The notes beneath the pieces were generated by a model. The model searched no databases, was not told where the DNA came from, and saw only the letters and a list, made by a program, of their open reading frames with translations. From positions 1 to 64,000 of IMG/VR virus record IMGVR_UViG_3300009095_000011: a stretch of DNA of 64,000 nucleotides; one strand, 5' to 3'. Source of the stretch: a virus (lineage: Duplodnaviria; Caudoviricetes). A program made the position numbers and the translations under genes. Shown piece after piece: positions 14,814-61,900 of this stretch. Numbering within the stretch: the stretch's first letter is position 1; every line of letters starts with the position of its first letter.

Positions 14814-16382
14814 TTATTTTACTATCAATTCTCTGTCTACGAATTCATTAAACGATTTTGCGAATGGATTATCATCTTGTTGGTAGTTTTCGTCTATAAA
14901 TTGGTTGCTTTCCTGATTGCCCATTTGTTTCATTTGAAGCCACTGCATATATACAGGATTCAAAATAACATCATCTTCGTCTATTGTATCTGGCAATCCT
15001 CTTTCTCTTCGTACTTCTTTAAGTCCCTTAAATGAGCTTGCTTTCTTTATTGCCATTTCAAGTTCTTTCTCTTCTGTTTCTGCTTCTAATCCTACAAAAG
15101 CAAATTCATATTCAGGAGCAATAGGAGTGATGATATATTTGTTGATTCTTTTTTGTAAGAATTTAAGTAATGGTTTTAATCCCTTATCTCTGCTGTATTT
15201 TAGTTTTGATTCATTGTTGGATTCAAACATTGAATTGCTGTCAGGAGATTGTTGAATACTGAATCCTATTTCTTCTGGACTGATTTTATATATAGCACAA
15301 GCGAGTTTTATTAGATATTCCTGATATTTGCTGTATTCCATGTCTCTATTGGATTTAGATAGATCAACAAATTCCATCTTATCAGCTTCTATAAAGCCCA
15401 TCTTATGTGCGTTTTGGAACCCAGCCATTGTCGCACTCCATTGCTGCCTGAACTCATGAAGTCTCGCTTCATTAATGTTACCACCTATTCGGAATATACC
15501 ACTTGGTACACTTCCTACTTTGAATACATTAGCGTTATATGCATCTCCTTGTAACATCGCTGTTACAGTGGAGATTAGTGTTTCCAATTCACTTTCGCCA
15601 TATCCATTAGTGTAGATAGCTGATTGTGGGTTTCTTATTCCCCACATCATTTCCCAAGGATAGAATTCTGCTAATATTTGATCTTGATATATTTGTACAT
15701 GGCTTGGTAGTTCGCCATATATTTTTCTTAGGTTTTTTATTTCGTCTGATCTGTGGTCTGCAAGACGAATAGTGGCTGCATCTACTGCAACAAATTCAAC
15801 TGGTAATCCTTTGTTGTTTCGGATTATCTCGCTTGAAATTTGATCAAGGATGAGACTATCTTTTACTGTTTTTCTTCCCCAACTTTCAAAGTCATCCCCT
15901 GTCCATTTATTACTATCGCTGCCACAGTTTAACAAGAACTCAGTTAATAGCTCAATTGTTCGTTGATCTTGCTTAGTAGCCTTCTCTTCGTTGTCCTGAT
16001 TGAAGTATTGGCTTTTCTTTTTGATTATGAAGCCGGTGCTATATTTGTCTGTTTGTGGTTCAAGAAATGCACTTACTTGTTCTACTCGTGTTTCTATTAC
16101 AGCTTTGATAATAGGGGCATTGGCCATCCTCCTAAGAGTAGTATGGGTTATTTTGTTGGGTTCAGTTAAATAACCACCCCTTGCTGTAAAATTAGATGGA
16201 TCTATAAAGAAAGACTTTGTTTTGTTGTCTCTTCTATAGATCTCGTGTAAGAATGATTGAGCTTTGATTAGTGCGTCTGGATCATCACTTTCAAATGCTT
16301 TGCGCATAATGATAGATTCCTCAGCAACTAATCTTTGTTTTTGAAGCTCTAATGATTTTATTTTATCTGTCAATTCACTCAT
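14814..16382 (-). CDS. Phage portal protein
   Basis: VDAATIR, YTNGYGESELE, F..GSVPSGI, DMEYSKY..YL..LAC.IYKISPEEIG, EVRRERGL. Confidence 0.9.
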   Translation of the reverse strand: MSELTDKIKSLELQKQRLVAEESIIMRKAFESDDPDALIKAQSFLHEIYRRDNKTKSFFIDPSNFTARGGYLTEPNKITHTTLRRMANAPIIKAVIETRVEQVSAFLEPQTDKYSTGFIIKKKSQYFNQDNEEKATKQDQRTIELLTEFLLNCGSDSNKWTGDDFESWGRKTVKDSLILDQISSEIIRNNKGLPVEFVAVDAATIRLADHRSDEIKNLRKIYGELPSHVQIYQDQILAEFYPWEMMWGIRNPQSAIYTNGYGESELETLISTVTAMLQGDAYNANVFKVGSVPSGIFRIGGNINEARLHEFRQQWSATMAGFQNAHKMGFIEADKMEFVDLSKSNRDMEYSKYQEYLIKLACAIYKISPEEIGFSIQQSPDSNSMFESNNESKLKYSRDKGLKPLLKFLQKRINKYIITPIAPEYEFAFVGLEAETEEKELEMAIKKASSFKGLKEVRRERGLPDTIDEDDVILNPVYMQWLQMKQMGNQESNQFIDENYQQDDNPFAKSFNEFVDRELIVK

Positions 16383-23706: not shown

Positions 23707-25140
23707 CTACATTAATAAGAAGTCGAAATCACTACCCATTAATAATTCATCTACTGCCATAGTTAAAACATCAGTCATATCCCATCGTGATGCAAAGGGC
23801 TGCATGCATAATTGTGACAAAAATGGACCTAAATAAGCACCTTCAATAAATTTTACTCTTCCAGATTTAATAAATGGAACAACAGCATTTAGTCTCATTT
23901 TTTTGTCTTTAATTGGATTTTTTGCCTCTACTACTTTTAATTGGGTTTGTTTCCTTAAAATATCAACTATATCCTGACCACTTGCTTTGGGTTCTATATA
24001 AATCAATGACCCATTACTGTAATGATTTGCTTGGACATATTGTTGTATATAGGGAATGTTTTGAGTAATAGTAAGCCATTCTTCATGAACATTAATTACA
24101 TATAGATCTCCCTTTCGTTTAAAACAAGCAAGGTATGCATTGGGGTCGTTCTCATGTTTATCTGTATATGATGTATCTAAAAAGAAATATATTGGTTCAT
24201 CTACTGGATTTCTAATGATACTATGAGCACTTACTTTTTCAATCCATTCATATTTAACCATACCTCCCTCTGGTGGAGATGGACTTTGTAGATACTGAGA
24301 AGCAAAGTCAGATTCACTCATTTCCTTCTGTTTCTCATTAATTACATGAATCGGAAATCTTTCTTGCCAAAATGTTCCTTTGCCATCTTCACCATATTTA
24401 TCAACAAATTGATCATAGGGTGTCAAATCTTTTGTAAGAATTGCAGGAACAATAAAATGTCTATAATTGAGATTTCTTTCTTTTACTATACCGCATGGAT
24501 CGTTTTGGGCAAGTCTTTGCATTACAAGAACCTTCAATCCGTAGATTTGAGATCTGAAACGAGAGGGAACAGTTTTAAACCAAAATTCATCTGCTGCCTT
24601 CACTTCTGCCTCACTGGCCCCATCTTGTGCATTCAACAAGTCATCGCCAATTATTATATCATAGTGAAATCCTGTATCAACATAAGCAACACGAACTCCA
24701 CCATGATTATTTTCAATTCTTTCTTCTGTAGATTTAGTGAGTTTATATTTATTACCCCAAAGTTTTTGATACCAGTCTGTATTAATTAATCTTGCAGCCT
24801 TACGACAATGATCGGTAGATAGTGCTCTCTTATATGAATCTGTAGCTAATCTAACATGAGGTGCAAATGACCATATCCATGCAATACTGCAAACAGAAAA
24901 GATCATTGATTTACTACTGGAAGGAGGAAGGTTAAAAGATAAATCGTAAGGTTTGGGTTCTTTTTTTACTACTCTCTCAACTGCTTCCTGGAAAATATTA
25001 CATGCTTCCTCTATATGCCAATTCCAGCTCCAGACGTTATCCGGCTCAATTTTGGTAACAGCTTCCTTTAAAAACTCATAATAGCTTTCCCTGTAAATGT
25101 CTCTCTGTAATTCGAGTTCAAATTCCTGCCCTAATTTCAC
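23707..25140 (-). CDS. terL: Terminase large subunit
   Basis: WNWHIE, NLPPSSSKS Walker A variant, IIIGDD Walker B, VMQRL, FASQYLQSP, nuclease domain FLDTS, IEPKASG, WDMTD. Confidence 0.92.
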   Translation of the reverse strand: MKLGQEFELELQRDIYRESYYEFLKEAVTKIEPDNVWSWNWHIEEACNIFQEAVERVVKKEPKPYDLSFNLPPSSSKSMIFSVCSIAWIWSFAPHVRLATDSYKRALSTDHCRKAARLINTDWYQKLWGNKYKLTKSTEERIENNHGGVRVAYVDTGFHYDIIIGDDLLNAQDGASEAEVKAADEFWFKTVPSRFRSQIYGLKVLVMQRLAQNDPCGIVKERNLNYRHFIVPAILTKDLTPYDQFVDKYGEDGKGTFWQERFPIHVINEKQKEMSESDFASQYLQSPSPPEGGMVKYEWIEKVSAHSIIRNPVDEPIYFFLDTSYTDKHENDPNAYLACFKRKGDLYVINVHEEWLTITQNIPYIQQYVQANHYSNGSLIYIEPKASGQDIVDILRKQTQLKVVEAKNPIKDKKMRLNAVVPFIKSGRVKFIEGAYLGPFLSQLCMQPFASRWDMTDVLTMAVDELLMGSDFDFLLM

Positions 25141-27506: not shown

Positions 27507-27597
27507 CCTTTAAAAAATTATGATTCAACTAACAGTTGTTTAGGCGATTGTCTTTCCCATTTGTACCCCATTTAAGAACGCAAAGAATAAAAACGGG

Positions 27598-27650
27598 GTA
27601 CAACACACAGTAAGCGGCATTAAAACGACCGCTTACTTACACCGTTACTA
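27598..27650 (+). repeat. Solo short attC-like site
   Basis: GTACAAC-ACAC-AGTAAGCGG-loop-CCGCTTACT-TACACC-GTTACTA; loop shares GCATTAAAACGA with the array terminus at 48965. Confidence 0.55.
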
Positions 27651-27889
27651 TGATGATTTGGATTTAACCATTTATAGCTCATTTAATATGCTTTATGATA
27701 TCATACAATCTCTCTATATGATCTGTTATTAAATCACTTGTATTTATTTTTAGATCCATATCATAAATTGCCTCTTCAATAATTGTATAATGAGAGGGTG
27801 AATGAATATCATTTGTGGTTTGCCATCCTTTTATTAAATCACCAATGGCTTGAATTGTTTGCTTTTGTTTATCGTTTGCTTTCATAAAC

Positions 27890-29347: not shown

Positions 29348-30994
29348 TTGTGGGTTTTAAATGGTTTGCATCTTTAATGCAAATAAATTTATGATTTTAT
29401 TCTGTTCTTTAAGATGATATTGATCTTTATTGTCCTTATATTCTCTCCATAGATCAAATAAATCTTCTATGTTTACACAAGCTTTTATTCTTAACTCTAT
29501 GTCTATCTCATGATAGTCATTAGGCAATAAAGCTTTGATTATCTTTCTTATAACTTTCATGACTAATCATTCAAACCATGATTTAATATCTTCATCATCT
29601 ACCGTATACCTTGAATTATTTTCATAATGATCAAAATCAAGTTCATCCTGAGCATCTTTTGCAATTGCACCCATACCTTTAAATATTGCTATAAGAAACA
29701 ATATGCCTATTATAATTAAAAATATTACTACGGTTATCATGATTGAAATTTTTTACCATTTGGATAATGAGATAATAAATCAAATCCTTTTTTGTTTGAT
29801 TCAAGAAAAGAAAAGTCTATTTCTTCATGATCAAGCTTCATATATGGATGAGTTATTCTTTTACTTTCTTCTCTAAAATTCCAATTTTCAGTGATCTTAA
29901 CATCGCCCTTATTCATATAGGGCTGCATTGTGTTAGTTTTGTTTGAGACTTCCATAATAATTTTAATTATAATATAAATCAAAAAATTTATCAAACTTAG
30001 TAATAAAATGCTTTATAAAAAAGCCATTTTCGTTATACAATTGACATTCAAAATGACTACATTTATTGCCATTCTCTATTATGTTTGTTATTGTTTTAAC
30101 CCTTCCATTTTGATGATATTCATAGGAAGTTCCTGTCAACTTATTTGTTCCTTTTATCACACAATTATCCATATGTAATCTACCATCTGGATAATAAGAT
30201 AGTTTTCGCTCTTCCATCACACCGGTATTTTAGTTAACGTTCTGCTATCAAAATCTTTTCTTTCACACATCTCTAATGCCATTCTCCAAGCTTGAGATTG
30301 ATTCTCTGCTTTAAATGATATAGTGAAGTATGCATTTGTTGGCTTATCCATAACCTCAAAATGAAATGTTTTGTCTTGAGGAAACGACTTTATTATTCTT
30401 CCTGCGATCCTGTCTATTAACTGTTGCAATGGATCAGGAATAAATATTTTTCTTTGATTTGCTGTTGTCATAATTACGATTTTTAAGTACTATACCTATT
30501 GATGTTAATGACATAGAAGCTAATACAAAGGAAATGAATAATATTGCTATTTGTTCCATTTTGCACCTCCCTTATACACTACCCTGCCATCACTGAAAGT
30601 ATGAGCTACCTGTAATGATGGTTTAGGTATTCCTCTGAATTGGTTTATGAAGTTGTAAAAATTGGTTTCTGCTTGTTTAGTTTTAAAAGTAGGAACTTTC
30701 ATTGTTTTGTTCTTTAAATAAAAATTAATAACTCAATTCTCTCATTGTCATAACAGTTAAGCTTCTGAATTTCTGCCTAACCATACCTTTGATAAACACA
30801 TTAGTTTCCTCAATGTATAATCTACGTGCATCAACAGTCACTAACTGACCTTGTGAATTGAGTTTCAAAAATACTCCATCAACAAAGTTATCTCCCTTTA
30901 CAGCTCCACCATTCATCACTACTTCAAGTGCTTGATAAAAGTTTAAATCATAATTTTGCTTTTCCATTTCTTTATCTTTTAGTTAAACATCTAT

Positions 30995-31026
30995 GTAAAT
31001 ATAACTCTTTTATCAATGCTTTGCAA
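30995..31026 (-). promoter_or_regulatory. Bacteroidota-type promoter with shared leader
   Basis: TTGCA-N18-TATATTTAC followed by ATAGATGTTTAAC, as at 37714. Confidence 0.6.
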
Positions 31027-31321
31027 GTTCTTTGTCTTTTTTATTTCGACTCTTAGCGACAATTTTTTTGATTTGATCGAACTCTTTTGAATGAGTTACT
31101 TGATATATCTTGTTATCATCTGCACTGAATATGTACACATCGTACTTACTTGTCTTTTTGTTTTGGTAAACCTGGACAAGAACGCTGTCTATTTCTTTAT
31201 CATAGACAATGTGGGTTTTTGTTTCACTTGATACTGTGAAACCTAAGTCTTTGAGTTGATCGTCCTGTGCAAATACAGCAAGGGAGATTAAGATTAGTGT
31301 GGTAGTGAATAAAGTTTTCAT
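31013..31321 (-). CDS. Secreted hypothetical protein
   Basis: Signal peptide MKTLF...AVFA; own promoter at 31344-31376. Confidence 0.55.
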   Translation of the reverse strand: MKTLFTTTLILISLAVFAQDDQLKDLGFTVSSETKTHIVYDKEIDSVLVQVYQNKKTSKYDVYIFSADDNKIYQVTHSKEFDQIKKIVAKSRNKKDKELAKH

Positions 31322-31436
31322 CTTTTTTATTTTAGTTTACACTATAAATATACAACTTATATTTGATATATGCAAATGTTTATTTAAGTTGTATTTGCAA
31401 ATCCTTAAATATTTAATTAAAACTTAAATATAAAGT

Positions 31437-31485
31437 ATTGAAAATCAAATATTTAAAAACGGTTGTTTATATATAGTAGTTATCG
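31437..31485 (+). other. attI-like site of cassette array B
   Basis: ATTGAAAATCAA...TTATATATAGTAGTTA matches ATTCATAATCAA...TTATATATAATAGTTA next to the integrase. Confidence 0.65.
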
Positions 31486-31493
31486 GTAATTAG

Positions 31494-31706
31494 TTAGCCC
31501 ACATTAAACTCATAATCACATTTTCTACACCAAACATGATTTCCATTTCTTGTGAAGTTTTCTTCGCCTGATTTGCAATGTGGGCAAACTAACTTTCGCT
31601 CCGCACCGCTAACGGCAAATAAATCCAATAGCTGTTCGGATGCTTCCGTAACAGTTATCTGCCCATCATTTAGCTGTGTGCATATTTTGTAAATTTGTTC
31701 TTTCAT
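31494..31706 (-). CDS. Cassette B1 zinc-ribbon protein
   Basis: CPHC...CRKC; ATG lies in the attC-like loop. Confidence 0.65.
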   Translation of the reverse strand: MKEQIYKICTQLNDGQITVTEASEQLLDLFAVSGAERKLVCPHCKSGEENFTRNGNHVWCRKCDYEFNVG

Positions 31707-31739
31707 GTCGCTACTGTATTTATTTGCAAAACGTTATAA
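31607..31739 (+). repeat. attC-like site B1
   Basis: CGCTAAC-GGCAAATAAATCCAATAGC...GCTACTGTATTTATTTGC-AAAAC-GTTATAA. Confidence 0.75.
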
Positions 31740-31746
31740 GCAAGTG

Positions 31747-32544
31747 CTACCTTTCGTTTCCAAAGAGCGTTCCTGCTTGTAAATCTTTTTCTTTTCTTTT
31801 TTCTCCCACCCTTTTTAAAGCAATTTCATAATGGTCTTTTACTAATTCACTACCAATGTAATCACATTCATTTTCAATACAACTTAATTGTGTAGTTCCT
31901 ATTCCAGTAAAAGGTTCATAAATCAAACTACCTTTTGGAAAGTAAATATTTATCAGTTGATTTACCAAATCTTGTGAAAATGATGCTTTTAATTGACATT
32001 GGTATCCATCATTATTTCTTGCTTCAATATAATTCACATAGTTTTTGTAAAACTTTTGTCCTGTTTTCTCATTTACTTTACTCACTTCCTTATTGGTCTT
32101 GAATGTATGTAAATGTTCTTTTTTTACAAAAACATAAATCAATTCAGTAATCCTACTTAATTTGGTTGGAGAAGTCTGAAATGGTATTGCGTTTGGTTTC
32201 TTCCAACAAATAATATCAGCAATAGTTAAATCAGTTTCATTGTGAATTTTAGCAACCAATAATGTTGGTAGAATAGGATTTTCTTTTGCATAAGATATGT
32301 TGTAGCAAATTACACCAGTATCATTTATTACTCTTGAAAATTCTTTAAATTCATTTGTTCTAACTTCAAGATAATCATTCTCACTCAAACCATCTAATTC
32401 AGAATATCCATTATTGTAATAACAATCACTTCTTTCTGTATTAATGTTATATGGTGGTGATGTAATTATCCCATCAATAGATTTATCATAAAGTCTTTTC
32501 AAGGTAATCTTACAATCTTCGTTATAAATTATATTTCGTTTCAT
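31747..32544 (-). CDS. Cassette B2 DNA amino-methyltransferase (beta class, probably N4-C)
   Basis: TSPPY catalytic motif precedes EPFTGIGTT SAM motif. Confidence 0.88.
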   Translation of the reverse strand: MKRNIIYNEDCKITLKRLYDKSIDGIITSPPYNINTERSDCYYNNGYSELDGLSENDYLEVRTNEFKEFSRVINDTGVICYNISYAKENPILPTLLVAKIHNETDLTIADIICWKKPNAIPFQTSPTKLSRITELIYVFVKKEHLHTFKTNKEVSKVNEKTGQKFYKNYVNYIEARNNDGYQCQLKASFSQDLVNQLINIYFPKGSLIYEPFTGIGTTQLSCIENECDYIGSELVKDHYEIALKRVGEKRKEKDLQAGTLFGNER

Positions 32545-32640
32545 TATTCAATTTTTGTTTTTTACCACCGCACAAAAAAGAAAAGAAAAGAAAAAGGTTA
32601 GTCTTTCGATTCAAGTTCTGTGCTATAATACCGCACCAGC

Positions 32641-32771
32641 TTATAACAGCGTGTATAAAAAATGGCGGGTTCTCGGTTAATTTAAAGTTTTATAATTCTA
32701 ATTAAGTTCTGCGTTTTCTGAAAGTTTTGGAGTTCTAATCCGCCACTTCTTATACACGCAAAACGTTAGTT
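32641..32771 (+). repeat. attC-like site B2
   Basis: TTATAAC-A-GCGTGTATAAAAAATGGCGG...CCGCCACTTCTTATACACGC-AAAAC-GTTAGTT. Confidence 0.8.
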
Positions 32772-33044
32772 TCCATTTGGATAAGCAGCATTACCATCTT
32801 TTAAAGACCAGTGCCATCCATCATTCATCGTGTGTTTACGTGGTTTTCTATAAGCCTTTTGTCCGTTACTTAAATATGCCAATGTCTTAGACACATCTAC
32901 AACTTTCACAGCTTCCATCCTGTAATTATGATTTAGTACACCATGATATTTACGAACAAAAACCACGTCACCAATTTCTAAAAAACGGCAACTAACACCC
33001 GCTATAGTGCATGGCTGTTCGTTTTTTTCTGATATTGTATCCAT
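32766..33044 (-). CDS. Cassette B3 hypothetical protein
   Basis: Starts inside attC B3; its TAA stop is the TTA of the GTTA core. Confidence 0.6.
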   Translation of the reverse strand: MDTISEKNEQPCTIAGVSCRFLEIGDVVFVRKYHGVLNHNYRMEAVKVVDVSKTLAYLSNGQKAYRKPRKHTMNDGWHWSLKDGNAAYPNGN

Positions 33045-33111
33045 AATTTAAAGTTTATTTACTGTTTGGGTGCGTTGTTGAAAGCCACGCACCATAGCTT
33101 TTACGTTGTAG
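32990..33111 (+). repeat. attC-like site B3
   Basis: AACTAAC-ACCC-GCTATAGTGCATGGCT...AGCCACGCACCATAGC-TTTTAC-GTTGTAG. Confidence 0.8.
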
Positions 33112-33120
33112 GTAATAAAC

Positions 33121-33330
33121 CTACTCATATACTCGTAACACAAAAGTTACAGATTTCTTACACCTGTCCTCAGCCATCCATTCTCCATCCTCAGTTAAAT
33201 AGCTTTCATCTGTATTCTCAAAATAATTAGTATACAGTAACTTTGGGATTAAATCATCTCCGTCAGCCAGATTGTACACCTTACCTTTTGTGTAACTTTC
33301 TTTTATCTCTTTAATTAATTTCTTTGCCAT
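33121..33330 (-). CDS. Cassette B4 hypothetical protein
   Basis: 69-aa ORF between GTTGTAGGTA and TACCTACAAC. Confidence 0.6.
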   Translation of the reverse strand: MAKKLIKEIKESYTKGKVYNLADGDDLIPKLLYTNYFENTDESYLTEDGEWMAEDRCKKSVTFVLRVYE

Positions 33331-33370
33331 GTTATCAAGTTTTCGTTTTCAAATCCGTAGGCTTACATAC

Positions 33371-33426
33371 CTACAACACACGCTAAAACGCCATACAAGT
33401 ACAGGCGTTTAGCTACATCGTTAGTA
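33371..33426 (+). repeat. attC-like site B4 (short form)
   Basis: CTACAAC-ACAC-GCTAAAACGCC...GGCGTTTAGC-TACATC-GTTAGTA. Confidence 0.75.
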
Positions 33427-33430
33427 GTCA

Positions 33431-33682
33431 TTACTCATCATCTTCAGGATAAATAGACACGCCTTTTCTTTCACAGGGAGTTTTGCCACAATATTTACAA
33501 TAGCCTTCAGGCAACGAACCGCTAACATCGGCTAAATCCAATGCTTTGTTTCGTTTCAATTCATCAATTCCCCTTCTTACATATTTCTCTACATCAATAC
33601 CTTCGCTTTCAAGATAGGCTGTAGCTCCTTCGGAAGTATCAATATCAAATCCATTTACTATAGTCATAATTTTCGTTTTCAA
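33431..33682 (-). CDS. Cassette B5 hypothetical protein
   Basis: Most of the ORF lies in the attC B5 loop; ALDLADVSGS is the translated left arm. Confidence 0.6.
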   Translation of the reverse strand: MKTKIMTIVNGFDIDTSEGATAYLESEGIDVEKYVRRGIDELKRNKALDLADVSGSLPEGYCKYCGKTPCERKGVSIYPEDDE

Positions 33683-33714
33683 ATTCGCACTGGTTTAGTC
33701 GCGGCACGTTATAT
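33520..33714 (+). repeat. attC-like site B5 with expanded coding loop
   Basis: CGCTAAC-AT-CGGCTAAATCCAATGC...GCACTGGTTTAGTCG-CGGCAC-GTTATAT. Confidence 0.7.
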
Positions 33715-33724
33715 TTGCGAACCG

Positions 33725-34243
33725 TTATTTCCCTCTCGCATCCCAACATAACTGATCTACCATCTCATTCCATTGATTTCCTGCATGACCACGAACCCAC
33801 TTGAAGGTAACGTTTGGCAAGGACAATTTGAGAGAATTGAGATACTGCCACAATTGTTGGTTTGCTATTGGTTTTCCTGATGTACTGTACCATTTCTGAT
33901 CAATCCATTGTTTGAGCCATAAATTAAGCCCTGTGATACAATATTTACTATCACTTAATACAATCACCTTATCAGTGATGTTATTGTCTCTGAGCCACTG
34001 TAAACCCTTTGTAATAGCTGTTAATTCCATGATGTTTGATGTGACGTTGTGTGCATCTCCATGATCGAAATGAATAAGGTCATCATCTTTAATTACAACG
34101 AAGGCCCATGCACCATATTTATGATGCTTTGATTTTGGGTTATTGGAGCAGCCACCGTCTGTGTAGATGTAGATCATCTTCCACAAATTAACATTAATAC
34201 TCTTATTAATATAAACCCAATAACTTTCTTTAAAGAAATCCAA
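33725..34243 (-). CDS. rnhA: Ribonuclease HI
   Basis: YTDGGC, TSNIMELTA, SDSKY, WVRGHAG..WNEMVD; true start probably MIYIY. Confidence 0.92.
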   Translation of the reverse strand: MDFFKESYWVYINKSINVNLWKMIYIYTDGGCSNNPKSKHHKYGAWAFVVIKDDDLIHFDHGDAHNVTSNIMELTAITKGLQWLRDNNITDKVIVLSDSKYCITGLNLWLKQWIDQKWYSTSGKPIANQQLWQYLNSLKLSLPNVTFKWVRGHAGNQWNEMVDQLCWDARGK

Positions 34244-34928
34244 AAGAACAAAATTGACAAATGGATTGATTCTTTAAATATGTGAAACCAGAAGATTATT
34301 TTTTGCTTTTGAACCATTCGTATAATCCGACTAATGCAAAGATAATTATTGCTCCTGCGAATGATAAGATTACTTGTGTCATTACTGTAAATTTAAGTTA
34401 AAAATTTTATTATTAATATTGACTTTTATATACCAAGTGTAAACTATATTATCACTATAGGTCATAAAGTCAATGAATAATCTGATTCTCTTTTCTTTAT
34501 TTGATATTGATTTGATGATTTTCATCATTTTTTCAAATAAGTTTTATCAATAATTCGTTTATTTATTGCTTTAAGGTTATCAACATACAAAGGAAAGGTA
34601 TTGAGAATAGCTATCTGCTCTCGCTTAAGTTGCAATTGTCGTTGCATTGCTAATTCAATTCGGTTTATGAGTTGAATGGTTGATTGTGAGGTCATGATTT
34701 TACAAATACTTTTTTAATGTGCAACCTTGTACTATCTTTCCCTGGCTTATCGAAGTAATCTCTGATATATTCAACAGCCTCTTCGTAGGTGTCTTTGACT
34801 TCCCATTGTTTGAATACTTCGATCATCATCTGCTCTATTCCAGAATCAAAAATACATTCAGTGGATAATTCTCCGATTATGAATTGCTCTTTCATCTCTA
34901 TAACTTTTAGTTAAACATTTATTACTCT

Positions 34929-34960
34929 GTAAATATAATCATTGTATTTATAAGTTGCAA
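34929..34960 (-). promoter_or_regulatory. Bacteroidota-type promoter
   Basis: TTGCA-N18-TATATTTAC. Confidence 0.6.
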
Positions 34961-35118
34961 CTATTATTATATATATTTTATATAATATTTAATATAATAT
35001 ACTTCTTTTCCCTTTGTATTTAATATATTATATATAAATAATATCCTTTTTTAAGTTATATATAAACTTGACCTGTATGGTTTGCAAGGCAAAGCAAAAC
35101 ATACAAATAAAGGTCTGA

Positions 35119-35931
35119 TCACACTTTGTGGGATTTGCCATTTATGTGGTTAAGTTTATTGTCGTTGAAAAAAGACAAAGGAGAGGTTAGTAGTGTATTG
35201 CATAAACGCATGTGAATATTTACCATACCTTTCTTTTTTTTATCAAATATATAGAAAGTTTTGGGATTAAGTCTGCTAACATTATCATTAAGGTAGGTAG
35301 TGATATGCATTTTATCTACCATGATGCTATTATTTTGCACAGACATTAAACCTTGCTTTCTTAGTTTTGATTGAATTTTACAAGCTGCCATTCTCGTTTT
35401 CAATCCTAATCGATTAGCCATAGCACGTTGAGAAATTTGATAACCGCCCTCTGAATAAGCCCTGCAAGGTTTGTTATCTCGTTTATCAATGTAAAAAAGC
35501 CTCTGTTCTAATCGATATTGATCAAAATGATATATGACTTCAAGTAATTTGTTTTTGCTATTAATTAAGTCATGAGGTATTTTTATTATTTCATTTGCAT
35601 TTTTATATCCCCTTCCACTTCTCTTAGGTTCGAATCCTAATTTTTGCCATAGTTTATCATAGGAAAGCAATTGATAGCCAACGTGTTTATTGTTTTTATC
35701 ATACACAATAATGGCTATTTCATTATCTACCATTGATTTAAATCGTTCTCTAATGGTAGCCTTATTGATATTAAGATGGCAGGAGATTTGTTTTAGGTAG
35801 TTTTTTTTATAGAAGTATCCAGAATCACAGAAAGATTTTAATTGCATGAAAAAAAGATAGTCATGCTTTAAGCCTGCTTTGGAAGCTTTCTCAATAGTTC
35901 CTTCGAGATATTTAATGGGATTGGATCTCAA
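35119..35931 (-). CDS. Basic protein with two winged-HTH-like regions (possible replication initiator)
   Basis: ISCHLNINKATIRERF and ISQRAMANRLGL...LRKQGL; AT-rich tract downstream. Confidence 0.4.
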   Translation of the reverse strand: MRSNPIKYLEGTIEKASKAGLKHDYLFFMQLKSFCDSGYFYKKNYLKQISCHLNINKATIRERFKSMVDNEIAIIVYDKNNKHVGYQLLSYDKLWQKLGFEPKRSGRGYKNANEIIKIPHDLINSKNKLLEVIYHFDQYRLEQRLFYIDKRDNKPCRAYSEGGYQISQRAMANRLGLKTRMAACKIQSKLRKQGLMSVQNNSIMVDKMHITTYLNDNVSRLNPKTFYIFDKKKKGMVNIHMRLCNTLLTSPLSFFNDNKLNHINGKSHKV

Positions 35932-46045: not shown

Positions 46046-46624
46046 TTAATTTTTAATTTCATAACCTGCTTCATTTGGCGATGGAATATACACATTGTGC
46101 TCTATTGCAGCCCAATCTCTTATTGATTCAATATATTGACTAAATTCATAAGTGTCTTTGTCAGTGGTTGTTAATGGAATATTTCGAGTTTGAGTGATTG
46201 TAATAAACTTACCATACTTAGGCCAATTGTCAATATCAATCACTGTATATTTTGGTAACAAAGGGAGCTTATTGGAACTGATTAGCATATCATTGATATC
46301 TTTTTCTTCGAGATATTGTGCAGGTTTTTCAAATTCAAATATACTATCATCATAAACCTCAAAGTATTCGGTTTTTATTTCAATCTTTCTGCTATTGAAT
46401 TGTAGTTTGAGAATCTCATGCATCTCATCTGTATTATATCCAAAATAATCACTAAGGATTTTAACTACCACTGCAAAATAGTAACTGTTCTGTTCCCTTG
46501 ATCTATTTCTTCGATACTTCTTTATAGAAAACCAGTAAGCAATATCTTCAAGTGTTTCAAGATGTTTGAGTACTTTATCTCTGTGATGAGGATTAGACCA
46601 GTCTATAAGGATATCAAGGTTCAT
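46046..46624 (-). CDS. NinB/Orf-like recombination protein
   Basis: [32 protein letters not shown]....V.IP.P. Confidence 0.7.
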
Positions 46625-47433
46625 ATTGGTAATGGAATTTTATTGAGCAAATTAGTACTTACATGGGTGTATATTTCTGTAGTCTTACTTGAATTGTGTC
46701 CTAATAACTTCTGAATTATCCTTATATCAGTTCCATTCTCTAACAATGAAGTTGCACTTGAATGTCTTAATTGATGAAAATGATATTGATTGCCCAAATA
46801 TTTCTTTATAATTTGATTACAAGAAGTGGATGAATATTGAAGACAATTTTGACCATTAAATAAATATTCTTTTGGTTTATATTGTTTATAATAGTCTCTA
46901 AGTAATTTAAGAATATTTTCACTTAATGGGACAACTCTATCTTTTCTACCCTTGGCATTTTTGATATTAATTATCATTCGCTTACTGTCAATATCCTTAA
47001 TTTTAAGATTGATTACCTCAGATACCCTAAGTCCTACAGAATATGCAAGCGAAATAATTGCTTTATGTTTAATGTTTTCAATCTTGGGAATCTTATCTAA
47101 AAGATATTTTTGATCGATTATTTGAGGTAATTTTTTCTCTTTCTTTGGTCTGGTAAATGAAACCTTATCATACTTTTTGTTTAAGCCAAACTTATATAAA
47201 AACCTAATGGCATTTATGACTTGATTTTGTTGAGAAATAGAGGAGAAATTGTATTGATCAAGATAGGATTGGAAATCGCTTGCAACTAAATGTTGATAAT
47301 ACTTACCTGTACTTTGAATAAACTTATCTATATAGTGAATATAGATACTTATCGTTCTTTCTGAGTAATTAAGATATTTAAGCTTTCGTTCGCAAATCTT
47401 TAAAATATCTTCTTTTTTCTTATTCATAATCAA
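46621..47433 (-). CDS. Tyrosine recombinase (integron-integrase-like, no IntI-specific insertion visible)
   Basis: N-terminal SAM-like domain (YSERTISIY); catalytic GLRVSE, KGRKDR, HQLRH, LLGH, TEIY; ATG at 47427. Confidence 0.93.
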
Positions 47434-47470
47434 TAGTTTACAAGTTAAATCTTATATATAATAGTTAGGC
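47422..47470 (+). other. attI-like site of cassette array C
   Basis: GTTAGGC core at 47464 immediately upstream of the integrase start; motif shared with 31437-31485. Confidence 0.7.
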
Positions 47471-47480
47471 ACAATAAAAA

Positions 47481-47786
47481 TTATTCCTCTGGTGTATCTA
47501 ACATATATCTCCAATATTTAACGTCTGTAAAATCAGTGTACCAACTACCAGCACCTAAAATAAACCAATTATATTCGTGTTTGGGACTACCAGTTCTTTT
47601 TATCAACTGTAATTTTGCTGGAGTCCATATATCATCATAAAACACCAAAACATAATCACTTTCTCTTTTTTCTTCAACACTTCCTTCTCTTTTATCGCAT
47701 TCTGCAATTTCCCAAACTTCATTTCCTAGTTTTGGTATTTCATTAATTGTCAGTTTATAGTCCATAATTTTAAAAGTGCCTAACAA
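47481..47786 (-). CDS. Cassette C1 hypothetical protein
   Basis: ORF fills the cassette; likely start MDYKL; VKYWRY C-terminus. Confidence 0.6.
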   Translation of the reverse strand: MLGTFKIMDYKLTINEIPKLGNEVWEIAECDKREGSVEEKRESDYVLVFYDDIWTPAKLQLIKRTGSPKHEYNWFILGAGSWYTDFTDVKYWRYMLDTPEE

Positions 47787-47901
47787 AGTGTATAAGCAAT
47801 AGCCGTTAGACGTTTTAAACTATTGCAGTTGTTAATAATAATTTTTATTCTTCTAGTCAAGTTTTGTGTTCGGCTACTGCTCATACACTAAACCGTTGTG
47901 C
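47778..47901 (+). repeat. attC-like site C1
   Basis: GCCTAAC-AA-AGTGTATAAGCAATAGCCG...CGGCTACTGCTCATACACT-AAACC-GTTGTGC. Confidence 0.85.
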
Positions 47902-47907
47902 GCAATA

Positions 47908-48177
47908 CTACTCCGCTGGCTCATACGTTTTCACAAATATATCAGGCTTGCAGGGGTAAAATTCACCGTGTACGCCCTTTATAATCCAATCGCCTTTACG
48001 GGCTAAGTGGTCGCCTTCAAGAGTTTCAATGTAAAATGTTTGCGTTCCCATTTCTCCGGGCTTCCACTTGGTTAATCCCATATTCATAATGTGCTGCCAG
48101 CTTTCATCTGTGCCATCCCATTGAGCAGCTTCAATTACAACAGGTTTCTTTCTAAATTTCATATTCGTACTGCGCAC
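47908..48177 (-). CDS. Cassette C2 conserved phage protein (RKKPVVIEA...[11 protein letters not shown] family)
   Basis: Motif set widespread in phages; likely start MKFRKK. Confidence 0.75.
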
Positions 48178-48301
48178 AACACAAAATAAAATGCAGTGGG
48201 TTGTACGTCTTATTTACACTGCTTGCCTGTCTGTTAGTTTCGGTCAGTCGGACAGCTCAGGCTTATCTATCCCACCGACATTTTATTCAAATTCGTTGTA
48301 G
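48174..48301 (+). repeat. attC-like site C2
   Basis: GCACAAC-ACAA-AATAAAATGCAGTGGG...CCCACCGACATTTTATT-CAAATTC-GTTGTAG. Confidence 0.8.
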
Positions 48302-48305
48302 GCAA

Positions 48306-48587
48306 TTAGTCTGCCCTTTCACCACTTCCAAAACAAGTAAGACAGGGCAATATTTCATTAGTACCTTTACCACTAAAACCTTCGCCTTCACAATTCGGGC
48401 AAACTAACTGTTCGCTTTGCCCTACAACATTAGATAAAACCAATAATGCTTGGTCTATCTGCCGTTCTTCTTCTTGTAATTCAGACGCTATTTCAGCTAT
48501 ATACTGATCTACTTCTTTTGGCATTTTCTGAAACTTTTTATCTATTTCAGACTTTCGTTTTATAAGGATGTTTATTACTTTCTTCAT
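48306..48587 (-). CDS. Cassette C3 protein with DnaJ-type CxxCxGxG zinc finger
   Basis: CPNCEGEG...CLTCFGSG; the N-terminal half is encoded in the attC loop and left arm. Confidence 0.65.
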   Translation of the reverse strand: MKKVINILIKRKSEIDKKFQKMPKEVDQYIAEIASELQEEERQIDQALLVLSNVVGQSEQLVCPNCEGEGFSGKGTNEILPCLTCFGSGERAD

Positions 48588-48619
48588 CGCATTACTGTTT
48601 TTATCATTATACGTTGTGC
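48422..48619 (+). repeat. attC-like site C3 with expanded coding loop
   Basis: CTACAAC-ATTA-GATAAAACCAATAATGC...GCATTACTGTTTTTATC-ATTATAC-GTTGTGC. Confidence 0.75.
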
Positions 48620-48620
48620 G

Positions 48621-48836
48621 CTATAATGGCTGAACACCTTCATCTTTCATTAATTCTTGTGCTTCTTTTGTAGCCATCAATACAGCTAATGCGGCATCAG
48701 CCATTCTTTCGACTTGATTTTTCCCGTACCAACAAAAGTCTTGTAATACAGGTAATTCAAATACCTTATCAATTGCATCAATTAATTCTTTTCTTACATC
48801 TTGTTCTTGCTTTGAAATCATAATATTACAGCGCAC
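48621..48836 (-). CDS. Cassette C4 hypothetical protein
   Basis: ORF fills the cassette; likely start MISKQ. Confidence 0.6.
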   Translation of the reverse strand: MRCNIMISKQEQDVRKELIDAIDKVFELPVLQDFCWYGKNQVERMADAALAVLMATKEAQELMKDEGVQPL

Positions 48837-48963
48837 AACATTGTATATAAATCAGTGGCGTTGTACGTCTATTTTGAACCACCTTTGCTGTTAATTTAGT
48901 TTTGTGCGGTTAGCAATCTTACAGCTATTAATCGCCACCGCTTCATATACTTTACCGTTGTGG
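48833..48963 (+). repeat. attC-like site C4
   Basis: GCACAAC-ATT-GTATATAAATCAGTGGCG...CGCCACCGCTTCATATAC-TTTACC-GTTGTGG; loop similar to C2 (TTGTACGTCT...CTGTTA). Confidence 0.8.
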
Positions 48964-48992
48964 TGCATTAAAACGATTGCACAACAACCATA

Positions 48993-49038: not shown

Positions 49039-51636
49039 TTATACTCCACAAGTTCCACCACCAGTAAGTTCACAAACATCATGAAATTCTTCTTTAAATT
49101 CCTCACCAACCTTATCAATAGCTTCATGATATGGTACAATTGTTAATGGCTGTCCACCTCTGGCAGAATCTGGATAACAAGTGAAACCTCTCAATCTGTG
49201 AGCATATTTAAGTAATGTATGAGCAAAATGATCAACAAGAGATTCATTGTTGTATTTAGATCCCCACTTGGGAAAATTAATTGTTGACGAAATACTCATA
49301 TCAACATAATCTTGCACATCAGCTTGAAATCTTATCCTTCTTTCATAATCTTTTGCAAGATCAATTGCACTTTCAATTTTGTCTGGATTAATTCCAAATT
49401 GATTAATTAATATTTCGGCAGTTCCATCAACTACATATTGATAATGCCAATCTTTATCGCTTTTTAGATATCTTCTTTTGTAAGCAACTGCAAAAATAGG
49501 TTCAATTCCAGTTGAAGTTCCTGACAAAATCCCAATGCTGCCAGTAGGTGCAATTGCCCTATACGCAGCAGGTCTTGATATGCTTAATTGATCACATAAT
49601 TCATTAGCTGCATTTTCTGATTCATCTTTATAGACTTGCAACCACTGCCTTAATTCATCATTCATTTCATAATTATAATCTCTTTTCAATAACCATTCAT
49701 GAACACCCATAAGGCCAAGTCCCAATCTTCTATTTTTCTTTCTTACCTCATAAACTTTATCATAAGGCAAATCAGCCTTTAAGGTTCCACACACAAGGAA
49801 TTTACTCATTAAACGAACAACCATTCTGAATGTCTCTATATCATCAATTCTGGACATATTAAGAGACGCAAGGTTACAAACATCGCTATCATCTTCACTC
49901 ACCACTTCTGTGCAAGCATTTCTTAGAGTTTGATTTACTTTTTCAAAGAAATTAAAGCTAAAACCAGGTTCACCAGTTTGACAAGCTTGTCTACAATTTG
50001 TAAGAAATGTTGGAGGAATATGTTTTATTTCTAATTGTTCGCCTGCTAAATACTTAGCTTTAATTTGATCAATTGGTAATTGATAAACTTGCTCAAGAAA
50101 ATCATTGTCATAATTAAGACTTATGTTTGTCATATCTAATGGAGCAGGGAAATTAAAATCTTTCTCTTTTAATGTACCGACATTAGTATTGGCTATCTTT
50201 TGAGAATGCCAATCTTTAGCTTTAAGAAATTCAGGTATATCTCCATGTTGCCAATTGAGAGAAGCATAAATAGCTGAACGCCTTGAGCCACCTTGCATTA
50301 CTTCTCTACCAATTTCATTAATAATCCTCATTGCACTGACTGCACCAGAAGCTACACCACCAGTTTTTGACAATTTACTGCCACGTGGCCTATAAACACT
50401 ATAATCAATCCCTATTCCTCCACCTGTCATAAGACAAGATTGTGCTCTCCAAGATAAATTAGCCCATTCTTCACGTGTATCGCTTTCAGCTTTTAACAAG
50501 AAACAATTAAATGTATCAATATTATTTTCAAGTATAAATCTATTATACACAGGTTCATAAGGACAATAAACATCCTCTTTTCCTAATGATCTGATAGAAT
50601 CAACCTTAAACCCCTCCCACCTTTCGCCATAATTATAATTAATAGTATAAATTCTAGAATGTTTTTTATATGCCGTCTCTCTATCCTGAAATCTTTTTTC
50701 TCCACTTATAACTAATCCAGCACATATAGCATTATCTATAAAATAATCTATATGAGATTCTGTTACAGAATTTATTTTTTTTCCTACTTTCTCGCAAGCA
50801 TCTGCTTTAATCCACCCTAATATAAATCCACTTATATAGTCAGTAGTTTCATTTTTACTTGGTAACTCTTTAAAATTTATATCATTCCAAATTCTAATAA
50901 CAGCATCTCCATTATAAGTTTTTGGAAACTTGATATTATATTCAATATTAAGTTCTTTTAAATAATCTTCTACTTTATTTAAATAAGACATATTCTTTTC
51001 TCCACATAAACGAATCTTATGTGTATATTTTTGATCTTTGTTTCTTATTCTTTCAAGATTTCCATCGCCAAATATTAAACCATGAATCCATCCCCTTTTA
51101 CTAAAATTAGAAAATTTTCCAGCAGGAACTACATCACCGATTCGCAAATCATAAGTATCTTTACCATTTATTAAAGGCCAATGATGAGTTCTTGTAGATT
51201 TTATTTTATAAGATATGTTGGAATTGCCCCTAATTGGTTTAAATATAATTTCTTGCACATCTTGTTTCCCATGATAAATTATCTCAGAAGGATAATATTT
51301 ACCATCAATAGGAGATTTTAACATTAAAGTTTTTCCTACATTAGATTTTAAATCTTTTAATCCAAAATCAGTTAAGACCTTAGTTTCTCCCGCAAAGCAA
51401 TTGTTAAAAAATTTATTTTCTCTACCAGCATAATATAAATATCTACCTCCCGCAATTGCTTGCATATCAGTATGAATTTGAATTAATTGTCGTATTTCAT
51501 CTTTAGTAAGCAAATCTCCACAAACATCATTTATTAGTGTTTTACTTAATTTATCCCACGTTTCACAATCTTTGTGTGCATATTTGTGATTAAAAATGTC
51601 TTCGGAGAATTTACTTCTGAAATATTTCTGACTCAT
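49039..51636 (-). CDS. nrdJ: Class II (B12-dependent) ribonucleotide reductase with intein
   Basis: GGRYL, GGGIG, GGSRRSA, NACTE, APTGS, GIEP, C-terminal Cys pair; no adjacent small subunit gene. Confidence 0.88.
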   Translation of the reverse strand: MSQKYFRSKFSEDIFNHKYAHKDCETWDKLSKTLINDVCGDLLTKDEIRQLIQIHTDMQAIAGGRYLYYAGRENKFFNNCFAGETKVLTDFGLKDLKSNVGKTLMLKSPIDGKYYPSEIIYHGKQDVQEIIFKPIRGNSNISYKIKSTRTHHWPLINGKDTYDLRIGDVVPAGKFSNFSKRGWIHGLIFGDGNLERIRNKDQKYTHKIRLCGEKNMSYLNKVEDYLKELNIEYNIKFPKTYNGDAVIRIWNDINFKELPSKNETTDYISGFILGWIKADACEKVGKKINSVTESHIDYFIDNAICAGLVISGEKRFQDRETAYKKHSRIYTINYNYGERWEGFKVDSIRSLGKEDVYCPYEPVYNRFILENNIDTFNCFLLKAESDTREEWANLSWRAQSCLMTGGGIGIDYSVYRPRGSKLSKTGGVASGAVSAMRIINEIGREVMQGGSRRSAIYASLNWQHGDIPEFLKAKDWHSQKIANTNVGTLKEKDFNFPAPLDMTNISLNYDNDFLEQVYQLPIDQIKAKYLAGEQLEIKHIPPTFLTNCRQACQTGEPGFSFNFFEKVNQTLRNACTEVVSEDDSDVCNLASLNMSRIDDIETFRMVVRLMSKFLVCGTLKADLPYDKVYEVRKKNRRLGLGLMGVHEWLLKRDYNYEMNDELRQWLQVYKDESENAANELCDQLSISRPAAYRAIAPTGSIGILSGTSTGIEPIFAVAYKRRYLKSDKDWHYQYVVDGTAEILINQFGINPDKIESAIDLAKDYERRIRFQADVQDYVDMSISSTINFPKWGSKYNNESLVDHFAHTLLKYAHRLRGFTCYPDSARGGQPLTIVPYHEAIDKVGEEFKEEFHDVCELTGGGTCGV
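50506..51399 (-). mobile_element. Intein (298 aa) with LAGLIDADG-type endonuclease in RNR
   Basis: NN|CFAGETKV ... TRTHHW ... GLIFGDG ... EDVYC ... DTFN|CFLL. Confidence 0.88.
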
Positions 51637-58951: not shown

Positions 58952-61900
58952 TTAAATGATTTCTACTTTAGTATTCTCATTGGAATGAAGAACGTTACAT
59001 TTCTTCCATCCATCATGTTTGATAATTCCTTTTATAAAGATAATGCTTTTTTCTGCATTTTTCAAGACTTTTTTATACTTTTCATATTCTTCATTCCATA
59101 ATGTAAAATGAATCATTTCACTATTTACATTGATATCTATCTGGACAAATTTGCCACGTTTGGATTTTCTTTCAATGATCTTTTCAATTACTCCACTAAC
59201 TACTATTTCCTGCCCTATGCTTTCCTCCTGATTAAATCTTAAAAGATCTATGAGGGAATTTGATTCACTTGCAAAAGAAGATGACTGAATGAGTTCTTTA
59301 TAGTTAATATACCCCAATCCTGTCAATTCAAGACTTTTCAATATCCACCAATGATTTTTCCAAATATTATTGAAATCATTAAATTCTTCTGGTAAATCTT
59401 CTTTTATAATTTCCTCATAATATTCCCTCAATATCTTAATTCTGTCAGATTCTTGTTTGACATTATAAAGCTCATCAAAAGCACCTGCAAGAATGAGATT
59501 AGTAATTGCTCGTTTATTTACTGTTCGCTTATCTACGCGATCAAATAAGTCTTTTACAGAGAAGAAATTACCTTTATTGTTTCTTTCTTCTATGATCTTC
59601 TCAACTGCTTTTTCACCTACCCATTTAACAGAAACAAGTGACCAATATATTTTTTTCTTGTCAAAGTCTGGTTTAAAATATTCTCCCGAATGATTGATAT
59701 CTGGCTGAGATACCATTACCTCTCCCAATCGATTCATTTCGGCTATAATTTGAGGCTTAGTGGAATCATCAGCATATTGCAGGGCTACATTATAGAATGC
59801 CACAGGGTAATGAGCCTTTAGGTACATTGTGGTATATCCTAAAATCGTATAACAAGCAGCATGGGAGTAATTGAATGAATACTGACCAAAGCTTTCAAAC
59901 ATATTCCATATATGTTCAGCTTCTTCTTTCGGGCAACCATTTTTTATTGCACCTTCAATAAATTGTGGCTTGTATGAATTTAAAAGTTCCTGATCTTTCT
60001 TACCTATACCCTTACGAATCATATCGGAATCAGCAAGGGAAAATCCCGCAAGATCAACGCAAGCCCTCATCACTTGCTCCTGGTATGCTAAAATTCCATA
60101 AGTTTCTTTTGTGATTTCCTCAAGTCCCCAAAGATATTCAGGTAATCTTTCACCATTTTTTATTTTTATATAATCAATATGTGACCCCGTACCCATTGCG
60201 CCTGGACGATAAAGAGCATTGGCGGCAATAAGATCATTTAACTTATCAGGCCTCATATCCATAAGAAAACCAGTCATGCCACCGCCACTGAATTGAAACA
60301 CATCAGCAGTGTACCCATCATTAAACATCCAGAATACTTTCTTATCATCAAGTGGAATATTTTGAAAATTATATTCCTTACCATATTTTTCTTTAACTAT
60401 TTTAAATATATCTCCAACTTTATCAAGTTGAGAAAGTCCAAGTATATCTTCTTTCAGAAATCCAAGTTTATCTAATACAGTCCCACTATATTCACTTACT
60501 ATAATTCCATCCTCTTTTCTTACAGGTATCCAATCCCATACTTCAATTTCATTACCCTCTTCATCTACATGTGGGAAAATTATAATAGCAGAAGCATGAA
60601 TTGATTTATTACGAATTACATTGTTAACTAATGGAAGATCATTTACAACTTCAATATTTTCTTTTATGAACTTTTTAAGAACTGTAACCTCCTGTGAATA
60701 TTTAAACAATTCAGTAATATTTTGTGGTTCATCGGCAACTTTCTTTGGGAATGTTCCTGTAATATAATTGATAGTCTGAAAATCAGTACCATTTTCTTTA
60801 GCAAGTTCCTTTAATGCACTTTTTATTTTTAATAATCCCCATGTGCCAACATAAGCAGTATGATTGTATCCATATTTCTGAACTATATATTGTTTAATTT
60901 TTTCTCGTCCCTCACTGGAAAAATCTATATCCACATCAGGCAATCCCTTAGTTACCCTTGCACTATTAAGAAACCTATCAAAAGGTAAGTTATATTCAAG
61001 TGGATCAATCATTGTAACATTCATCAAGTAAAGACAAAGAGATGATGCAGCAGAACCACGACCTAAATTTCTCATTATGCCTCTCTTATCTGCCTCTCTA
61101 CAAATATCATAGGTAATAAGAAAGTATTCTCTATATCCTCCTAAATCAATTACACTTGTTTCATATTCAATGCGGTCTAAATATTTTTGATCATTCTCCT
61201 TGCCTATTCTTATCAATCCTTTCATGATAAGATTGTCGAACATATTATTTGTAGTTCCATATTGTTCTTTCTCTTCATCTGTCATAATATACTTAGGCAG
61301 ATGAAGTTTTCCGGTTTCTATTTCAAACTTGCACTTATCAGCTATTTTAACGCTGTTCTCAGCACTTTGAGCGAATATGTCATATAATCTATCATCTTCA
61401 CCTTTAAATAGCTTAGAGAGGCTAAAAAACAGTTCATCAATGCTCTTGAAATGTTGGTCGTCGCTTGCGTAGCTAAATGGTACTTTGCCGATCTTTGCAA
61501 GTTTTGGTTTTATATGAGCATGAGATTTATCAAGATAGTAACTGTCACTCATTAATACAGGAGGACAGATAGGATAAAGTTCATGAAGATATTGTTTAAG
61601 GTTTAGCAAGTGCTCTTTATCTCGCTCATTGGATTTATATTCAACTGGATCGAATTGAAAATATATGTCTTTGAATTGTTTACTAAATTTGTAGAATACT
61701 GCTTTATTAAAATAATTTATGCTATCGGGAGGAATCACAAGGATGAGACCAGATGATCTTTCGAGTAGTTCTTTTTCAACAATAAATCCATCATTATCTA
61801 CTTTAATTGCTTTATTGATCCTTAAAAGGTTTTGCCATCCTGTTTTATTCTTTACATATAGTTTTACAAGGTAAGTTGCTTTGCTCTGTACTGTGGCTGT

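Follow-up and report, generated by a model that had tools for sequence, protein, structure and literature searches.

Positions 31380-33719 of the DNA analysed here (the window: positions 1 to 64,000 of the virus record IMGVR_UViG_3300009095_000011, Duplodnaviria; Caudoviricetes) hold a row of five small one-gene units, each with a hairpin of its own. A tyrosine recombinase gene with a similar row beside it lies about 13 kb away. The locus thus raises the question of whether the distant row is a second platform for the capture of genes and, if so, which enzyme would serve it. We put at roughly 0.7 the probability that 31380-33719 serves as a second cassette platform within a gene-capture system that resembles an integron and is native to large phages of the Bacteroidota type, with the single recombinase acting in trans. 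The elements needed to follow the argument are listed below.

46621-47433, minus strand: tyrosine recombinase gene, 270 amino acids, Xer/IntI-like (Pfam Phage_integrase, E=1.5e-39, and a SAM_4 N-terminal domain)
47449-47475, minus strand: attI-like docking core linked to the recombinase gene, site 1 (nhmmer profile, 15.1 bits, E=0.0031); array 1 starts here
47465 to about 48990: array 1, four cassettes from site 1
31457-31491, minus strand: orphan attI-like docking core, site 2 (nhmmer profile, 15.7 bits, E=0.0019 genome-wide)
31380-31456, minus strand: distal module of site 2, with a former start-codon region and a putative, decayed recombinase remnant

Docking cores were sought with a profile made from 60 sites of relatives, the phage under study being excluded, and the search covered the whole 114-kb genome. 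Only sites 1 and 2 match, the third-ranked match having an E value of 1.2. An exact 13-base docking consensus likewise occurs in two places only, at site 2 and at 47455. Because profile hits and consensus are both limited to these two places, we regard the docking core at site 2 as a genuine second copy, which is in register with the first cassette. Among the relatives, the motif stands directly upstream of the recombinase start, on the recombinase strand, in every locus that retains upstream sequence (74/74). In gene sense it reads AATTG-nnn-ATAAC followed by TATTATATATAA; the conserved core of site 2, in the same sense, is ..ATAAC|TAnTATATATAA, from which the crossover is placed between G31479 and T31480 on the plus strand. 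As with an attI beside its integrase, the site of platform 1 is directly upstream of the gene start; that of platform 2 adjoins the decayed remnant only. A preliminary description, drawn from the letters of the window, had proposed a motif shared with the integrase-proximal site, its halves falling at 31437/31467 and 47422/47452. The profile from the relatives confirms that the motif is shared. Its core is real, and the part written ATT.A.AATCAA proved to be the start-codon region of the recombinase gene and no separate site element. Alignment of the two copies with each other, which had been expected to define the attI consensus, is marginal (score 30; 54 of 1000 shuffles score as high, as do 17 of 1130 other segments of the window), and it is the relatives' profile that decides.

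The cassettes of array 2, which together occupy 31480-33708, are as follows (ORF, open reading frame).

31480-31733, minus strand: cassette B1, ORF 31494-31706, 70 amino acids, Cys-rich; hairpin site b1 overlaps the 5' part of the ORF
31734-32765, minus strand: cassette B2, DNA methyltransferase ORF 31747-32544, 265 amino acids (Pfam N6_N4_Mtase, E=4e-27)
32766-33105, minus strand: cassette B3, ORF 32766-33044, 92 amino acids, no family; the start codon is within the hairpin loop
33106-33420, minus strand: cassette B4, ORF 33121-33330, 69 amino acids, no family
33421-33708, minus strand: cassette B5, ORF 33431-33682, 83 amino acids, no family; distal end of the array

Each of them begins with TT, preceded by G, and has a hairpin site after its minus-strand ORF. 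All nine cassette ORFs of the two arrays are on the minus strand, reading towards the docking site and the recombinase gene. The first 12 bases of a cassette are complementary to its own inner box, at 8 of 12 positions in B1, 10 of 12 in B2, B3 and B4, and 7 of 12 in B5. Summed over the nine cassettes, own pairs agree at 59 of 81 variable positions, a total that none of 50,000 permutations reached; for array 2 taken alone, the corresponding total was reached by 2 of 120 permutations. This complementarity of own ends bears out the earlier statement that five further cassettes share one architecture, and the two pairs quoted for it are in place (GTTATAAGC at 31733 with its complement at 32639; GTTGTAGGTA at 33105 with its complement at 33368). 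Many cassette ends in the relatives' loci and in the window (31733-31751, for instance) share the string GTAGCAWTG-nnn-ATAAC in gene sense, a conserved box that exceeds the 7-base core of classical attC sites in length. The B1 protein (PHROG 32244, E=6e-5) is a paralogue of the protein of cassette A3 in array 1 (48306-48587; 32% identity, E=6e-5). Both are Cys-rich, and each gene has its 5' part within an attC-like hairpin.

Hairpins were detected with two successive models. The first, R2, was made from six sites of this phage, which share a fold of 21 pairs, 12 of them with compensatory changes. It found more than 100 sites in the relatives' loci, nearly all on the recombinase strand and upstream of the recombinase gene or of orphan docking sites. 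The second, R3, was made from 102 relatives' sites gathered with R2, and was run unfiltered over the window. All of its hits in the arrays are on the minus strand:

31602-31744, minus strand: site b1 (R3, E=3e-14)
32636-32776, minus strand: site b2 (R3, E=1e-22)
32985-33116, minus strand: site b3 (R3, E=5e-12)
33366-33431, minus strand: site b4, short, folding as a hairpin (R3, E=0.011)
33515-33719, minus strand: site b5, long and weak (R3, E=0.28)
within 47773-48968, minus strand: the four sites of array 1 (R3, E=1e-16 to 1e-3)

Array 2 has, then, three strong attC-like sites, one moderate and one weak. The inner box of b3, at 32985-32996, is inside the ORF, and b3 is therefore a full-length site of 132 bases. 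In the 102 relatives' sites, 97.5% of cells are paired, as compared with 68.8% in shuffles and 31-58% in slid controls, and there are 526 double-sided changes against 146 in shuffles; because the alignment had been fitted to the model, these figures are somewhat biased towards structure. The hallmark of attC sites, an imperfect hairpin with AAC...GTT outer boxes and covarying, variable inner stems, is present. Scans for strict RYYYAAC...GTTRRRY pairs gave no match; the boxes are non-canonical and the spacers asymmetric. Outside the two arrays, R3 gives only two weak, lone hits in the genome, at 27593-27654 and 81782-81884, and no third array or docking core was found in the remaining 50 kb of the genome. 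The hit at 27593-27654 (minus strand, E=0.02) is a short attC-like hairpin between two core genes. Its loop motif, TCGTTTTAATG, recurs as the reverse complement in a mini hairpin that closes array 1 (48957-48988), and is also found in tiny 'empty' cassettes beside the docking site of four relatives' loci (L019, L028, L045 and L062). The hit at 81782-81884 of the genome (minus strand, E=0.048; L174:17782-17884) is a weak, lone attC-like match.

Only one gene in the genome would supply an enzyme for these sites: tblastn detects no second copy of the recombinase in the 114 kb. The best NCBIfam model for the protein is archaeal XerA (183 bits, cut-off 220); it scores 154 bits with the integron-integrase model TIGR02249 (cut-off 265), in a match split into two stretches, and 102 with PRK15417 (cut-off 435). 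XerA/XerC-like proteins of the PDB (4a8e and 5hxy) align with it over the full length (E=2e-37 and 6.5e-30), and Vibrio IntI4 (PDB 2a3v) aligns with residues 21-182 only. By these family scores and alignments, full-length for XerA and partial for IntI4, the enzyme classes as Xer/IntI-like without the IntI-specific insertion. About 210 relatives of the recombinase, 58-72% identical to it, were found in viral contigs.

These relatives show whether docking sites away from a recombinase gene are peculiar to this genome. The docking-core model was searched over 25 whole relatives' records, and locus L003 was inspected too. Ten convincing orphan sites were found in six phages (G005, G009, G021 with four, G023 with two, G024 and L003); low-scoring candidates at G014 52873 and G002 118895, which are without the AAC box, were left out of the count. 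The recombinase gene is absent from the 1.2-3 kb of sequence covered on the gene side of the ten sites. Hairpin sites detected by the model are found just upstream of 7 of the 10, and at least 6 of the 10 still have a start codon, followed by 9-25 recombinase-like codons up to a stop (profile E 1e-5 to 0.026). Five of the six orphan-bearing records have exactly one recombinase gene by tblastn, with two to five docking sites each, and two of these five, G009 and G023, are complete and have terminal repeats. The pairing of a single enzyme gene with several docking sites (two to five) is thus a recurrent design, of which site 2 is a more decayed example. Where it was scored, the recombinase-side homology of the orphan modules ends at about +85 to +136 from the AAC, with a sharp end in two cases. 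One relic (G023_243931) may extend to about +160, past a 16-base deletion, and other relics are eroded stepwise as well. Ends of this kind argue for a boundary with a function or a mechanism behind it. An exact search of the contig collections for a word taken from the G009 relic matched G009 itself only. The recombinase frame of G005 (G005:C1:196591-197397) has one in-frame TAG, which may mean a broken gene or stop-codon recoding.

Comparison of the relatives also indicates that cassettes have moved, and where the exchanges took place. G021 has an orphan module that matches its linked module with 100% identity through 100 bases, from 1 base before the AAC to +99, and in G024 the identity is 89% over 114 bases; in both genomes unrelated cassettes stand to the left. 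The two sites of G005 share their first cassette (86% over 406 bases), and the homology stops at its outer box. Orphan sites of relatives are therefore joined to unrelated cassettes exactly at the crossover. The cargo of array 2 takes part in such traffic. The methyltransferase cassette B2 recurs in five loci (L093-L097) at 87-89% DNA identity, the likeness being confined to 31732-32666 or 32760, so that it stops within hairpin site b2 or where b2 ends. Past the terminal AAC the five loci continue differently: three with hairpin sites, one with a probable docking variant and one with a docking core. In this last locus, L097, the B2-type cassette is first in line at the docking core (E=4e-9), and the adjacent recombinase gene has 61.5% identity. 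Other relatives have more distant methyltransferase cassettes in arrays linked to a recombinase gene. The contigs with the close cassette belong to unrelated phages. To judge from these comparisons, cassettes are independently mobile and are probably exchanged at G|TT; the breakpoints are those predicted for site-specific exchange at the crossover, and the cargo of array 2 belongs to the same mobile pool. In L095 (1483-8372), two cassette arrays meet in opposite orientation, the R3 hits at 1483-2387 being on the minus strand and those from 2631 on the plus strand.

Service in trans of site 2 by the 46621-47433 recombinase, which the preliminary description had offered as a possibility, is likely on this comparative evidence, because genomes with one recombinase gene hold two to five sites, joins are exact to the crossover and the cassette pool is shared. 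Platform 2 consists of an orphan docking module of about 110 bases, five hairpin-bounded cassettes and a distal end at an RNase H gene, the module itself comprising the conserved core, a diverged promoter-leader region and the first recombinase codons. The single Xer-like tyrosine recombinase would act on both platforms. It would bring the folded attC-like hairpin of a circular cassette into synapsis with one docking core or the other, exchanging strands at G|TT (plus strand), so that new cassettes would enter next to the core at either locus. On this view, site 2 would still be active.

How the second platform came to stand without a gene depends on what is left beside its core. An anchored alignment of the distal module with 47352-47446, extending over about 100 bases, scores 8.5, as against -1.8±4.0 for dinucleotide shuffles. 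That score is reached by 25 of 2000 shuffles (it beats 98.7% of them) and by 4 of 239 AT-rich genomic controls. The alignment contains a decayed remnant of about codons 9-20 of the recombinase, at 31388-31414. Here the preliminary description had read YLRICKYNL on the minus strand and compared it with ILKICERKL near the start of the intact integrase; both translations are as quoted. A tblastn search for a recombinase remnant at site 2 gave nothing at E<10. The profile of recombinase codons 9-33 is not significant at site 2 when judged alone (3.0 bits, E=14 genome-wide), and gives E=0.2 when the search space is the 300 bases beside eleven orphan sites (the ten in relatives and site 2). On this phage alone, the remnant is suggestive; it gains credibility by likeness to relatives that have the same layout and unmistakable relics, and to that extent the integrase relic of the earlier account can be kept. 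Of its further statement that the platform had lost its integrase, the existence of a second platform without a recombinase gene stands; loss in place is not distinguishable from a copied module of about 100 bases. On the favoured reading, the site-2 module would descend from a platform that once had the full recombinase gene, and not from a module copy alone.

A number of observations weigh against a second platform in working order. The docking core is short and AT-rich, and the genome-wide score of the remnant is the one given above. In the former start-codon region (31437-31448) the ATG is lost, and the alignment puts an 11-base insertion after it, in the site-2 leader; the accessory binding sites that the leader might have may therefore be damaged. 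Site b5 scores weakly and B1 and B5 have imperfect inner boxes (8 and 7 of 12), which fits some decay, and R3 itself descends indirectly, through R2, from this phage's own sites. An exact 22-mer of the site-2 orphan module was not found in the viral and metagenome contig collections, and a search of viral contigs for syntenic relatives of the array-2 locus, anchored on the helicase, found none. Much of this could be accommodated by supposing that array 2 is a frozen, dead remnant resembling the clusters of attC sites lacking an integrase (CALINs), with a core kept by chance or by recent descent and with cassettes that are now fixed phage genes; the weak b5, the imperfect B1 and B5 boxes, and a leader and remnant more decayed than any scored relic of the relatives are what this supposition would predict. 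We regard it as unlikely, since the site-2 core scores as high as the linked core though the flanking remnant is decayed, which suggests selection on the core, since b1-b3 are among the best hairpin matches of this phage, and since the orphan sites of relatives have demonstrably been joined to new cassettes.

A different history would have no full recombinase gene ever present at the locus: a portable block of about 100 bases would have been copied from the linked site and would then have gathered cassettes. The fully identical block of G021 with its sharp end at +99, and the 89% identity over 114 bases in G024, speak for it, as does the end of scored homology at about +85 to +136, which is unexpected from random decay of an 810-base gene. 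Against this, some relics decay stepwise with internal deletions, and the one that reaches about +160 (G023_243931) fits erosion of a longer gene; no copying mechanism or boundary motif was identified, and gene conversion between modules could also give sharp, identical blocks. Such an origin deserves serious thought, at somewhat less than even odds. We are equally tentative about a related idea, namely that the block of about 100 bases (core, leader and first 15-25 codons) is a functional, portable 'dock' copied to several places in a genome, up to five. A single recombinase could in that case assemble and reshape rows of cassettes that lie in different transcription units, and the 5' codons would be retained for the accessory binding or regulatory sites of attI and would not be junk.

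A further rival would deny that there is any recombination site: the motif would serve the phage as a promoter or for regulation, and the hairpins would be terminators or else shuffling elements of the T4 type, acting through homologous recombination. The core is indeed TATA-rich and could act as a promoter, and the hairpins are placed between genes. Still, the motif occurs only twice in 114 kb, and so is no general promoter. The breaks in homology from phage to phage fall exactly on the AAC/TAT junction and on the cassette boxes, every cassette has a unique complementary pair of ends, and the hairpin stems covary and are not conserved repeats; no Rfam family matches them (a scan of 30900-34300 gave no match). 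We consider this explanation highly improbable. In T4-type phages, as Arbiol, Comeau and Krisch reportedly described in 2010, near-identical promoter-stem-loop repeats flank small ORFs that are shuffled by homologous recombination. That system was considered as a counterpart and rejected: here the stems differ and covary, each cassette has its own pair of ends, and there are a dedicated recombinase and a docking site.

Among described systems, the nearest in layout are integrons accompanied by a CALIN (for the concept, see Cury et al. 2016, PMC4889954). The Shewanella prophage M16-3 carries a CALIN that has an attI to itself (Qi et al. 2023, PMC9892861) and so has, likewise, an integrase-linked array and an integrase-less array that starts from an attI copy. 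Shared with integrons are folding sites with AAC/GTT cores that bound the cassettes, a crossover at G|TT, and a resident integrase expected to mobilise cassettes in trans. Array 2 has the make-up of a CALIN, defined by at least two attC sites without a nearby integrase: it has five sites (31602-33719), which are of the phage type and were found with phage-derived models. CALINs are also known from virulent phages, and Polaribacter phage P12002L has two DNA methyltransferase cassettes (Qi et al. 2023, PMC9892861). Compared by description, CALINs of that type are likewise attC clusters without an adjacent integrase, with DNA methyltransferase cargo, in a flavobacterial phage. The sites of those CALINs had been identified by canonical attC models and assayed with the bacterial IntI1, and no phage recombinase or attI was described for them (PMC9892861). 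Full-text literature searches, with subscription journals outside their scope, returned phage CALINs and no description of an Xer-like phage platform.

The differences from integrons are several. The phage enzyme has 270 amino acids, is Xer-like and is without the IntI-specific insertion; Smyshlyaev et al. describe this insertion as 'not fully conserved' in their integron-like subgroup. The cassette genes of the phage face the docking site, whereas integron cassette genes read away from attI and are driven by the promoter Pc. The hairpin spacers are asymmetric, 5-7 bases long on one side as against 1-3 on the opposite one. The platform would be native to large phages of lytic type, the orphan site keeps the first recombinase codons, and there are up to five sites per genome. 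With the Xer/dif system, the best full-length sequence likeness is to archaeal XerA, at a score below the family cut-off (183 as against 220 bits); unlike a xer gene with its single dif site, the phage gene adjoins cassette arrays, and its targets would be a docking core and variable hairpins.

The record that carries both platforms has 114,226 bases and about 30% G+C, with nearly all genes on the minus strand. PHROG matches name the following genes in the window, and SbcCD-like nucleases are also named by such matches in the phage genome; the RNase H gene was recognised with Pfam.

14814-16382: portal protein (PHROG match)
23707-25140: large terminase (PHROG match)
33725-34243: RNase H (Pfam, E=3e-29), abutting the distal end of array 2
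49039-51636: ribonucleotide reductase (PHROG match)
58952-62095: DNA polymerase of the PolIII-alpha type (PHROG match)

The closest cultured relatives of the polymerase and the recombinase are in phages of Chryseobacterium, Cellulophaga, Polaribacter and Bacteroides, at 31-40% identity, and with these affinities the source element is taken to be a large, uncultured phage of the Bacteroidota type. The RNase H and the left neighbour of 102 amino acids have no matches among the relatives' loci L001-L092. Further on, the AT-rich stretch 34900-35100 contains many overlapping inverted repeats. Beside it, ORF 35119-35931 encodes 270 amino acids, the same length as the recombinase, to which it is unrelated; it has no Pfam, NCBIfam or PHROG match.

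The integrons of bacteria are familiar as single-integrase, single-attI devices, and orphan arrays are as a rule regarded as debris. In the phages described here, the analogue would be run by a shorter, Xer-like enzyme, and one enzyme gene repeatedly accompanies several docking sites in a genome. The two natural sites of the present genome offer a ready comparison for the attI requirements of the recombinase, and the steady retention of the first recombinase codons hints at the outer limit of attI. If the reading of 31380-33719 as a second platform is true, such phages could store and swap accessory or counter-defence genes, for instance the DNA methyltransferase found here, in modular fashion at several loci.

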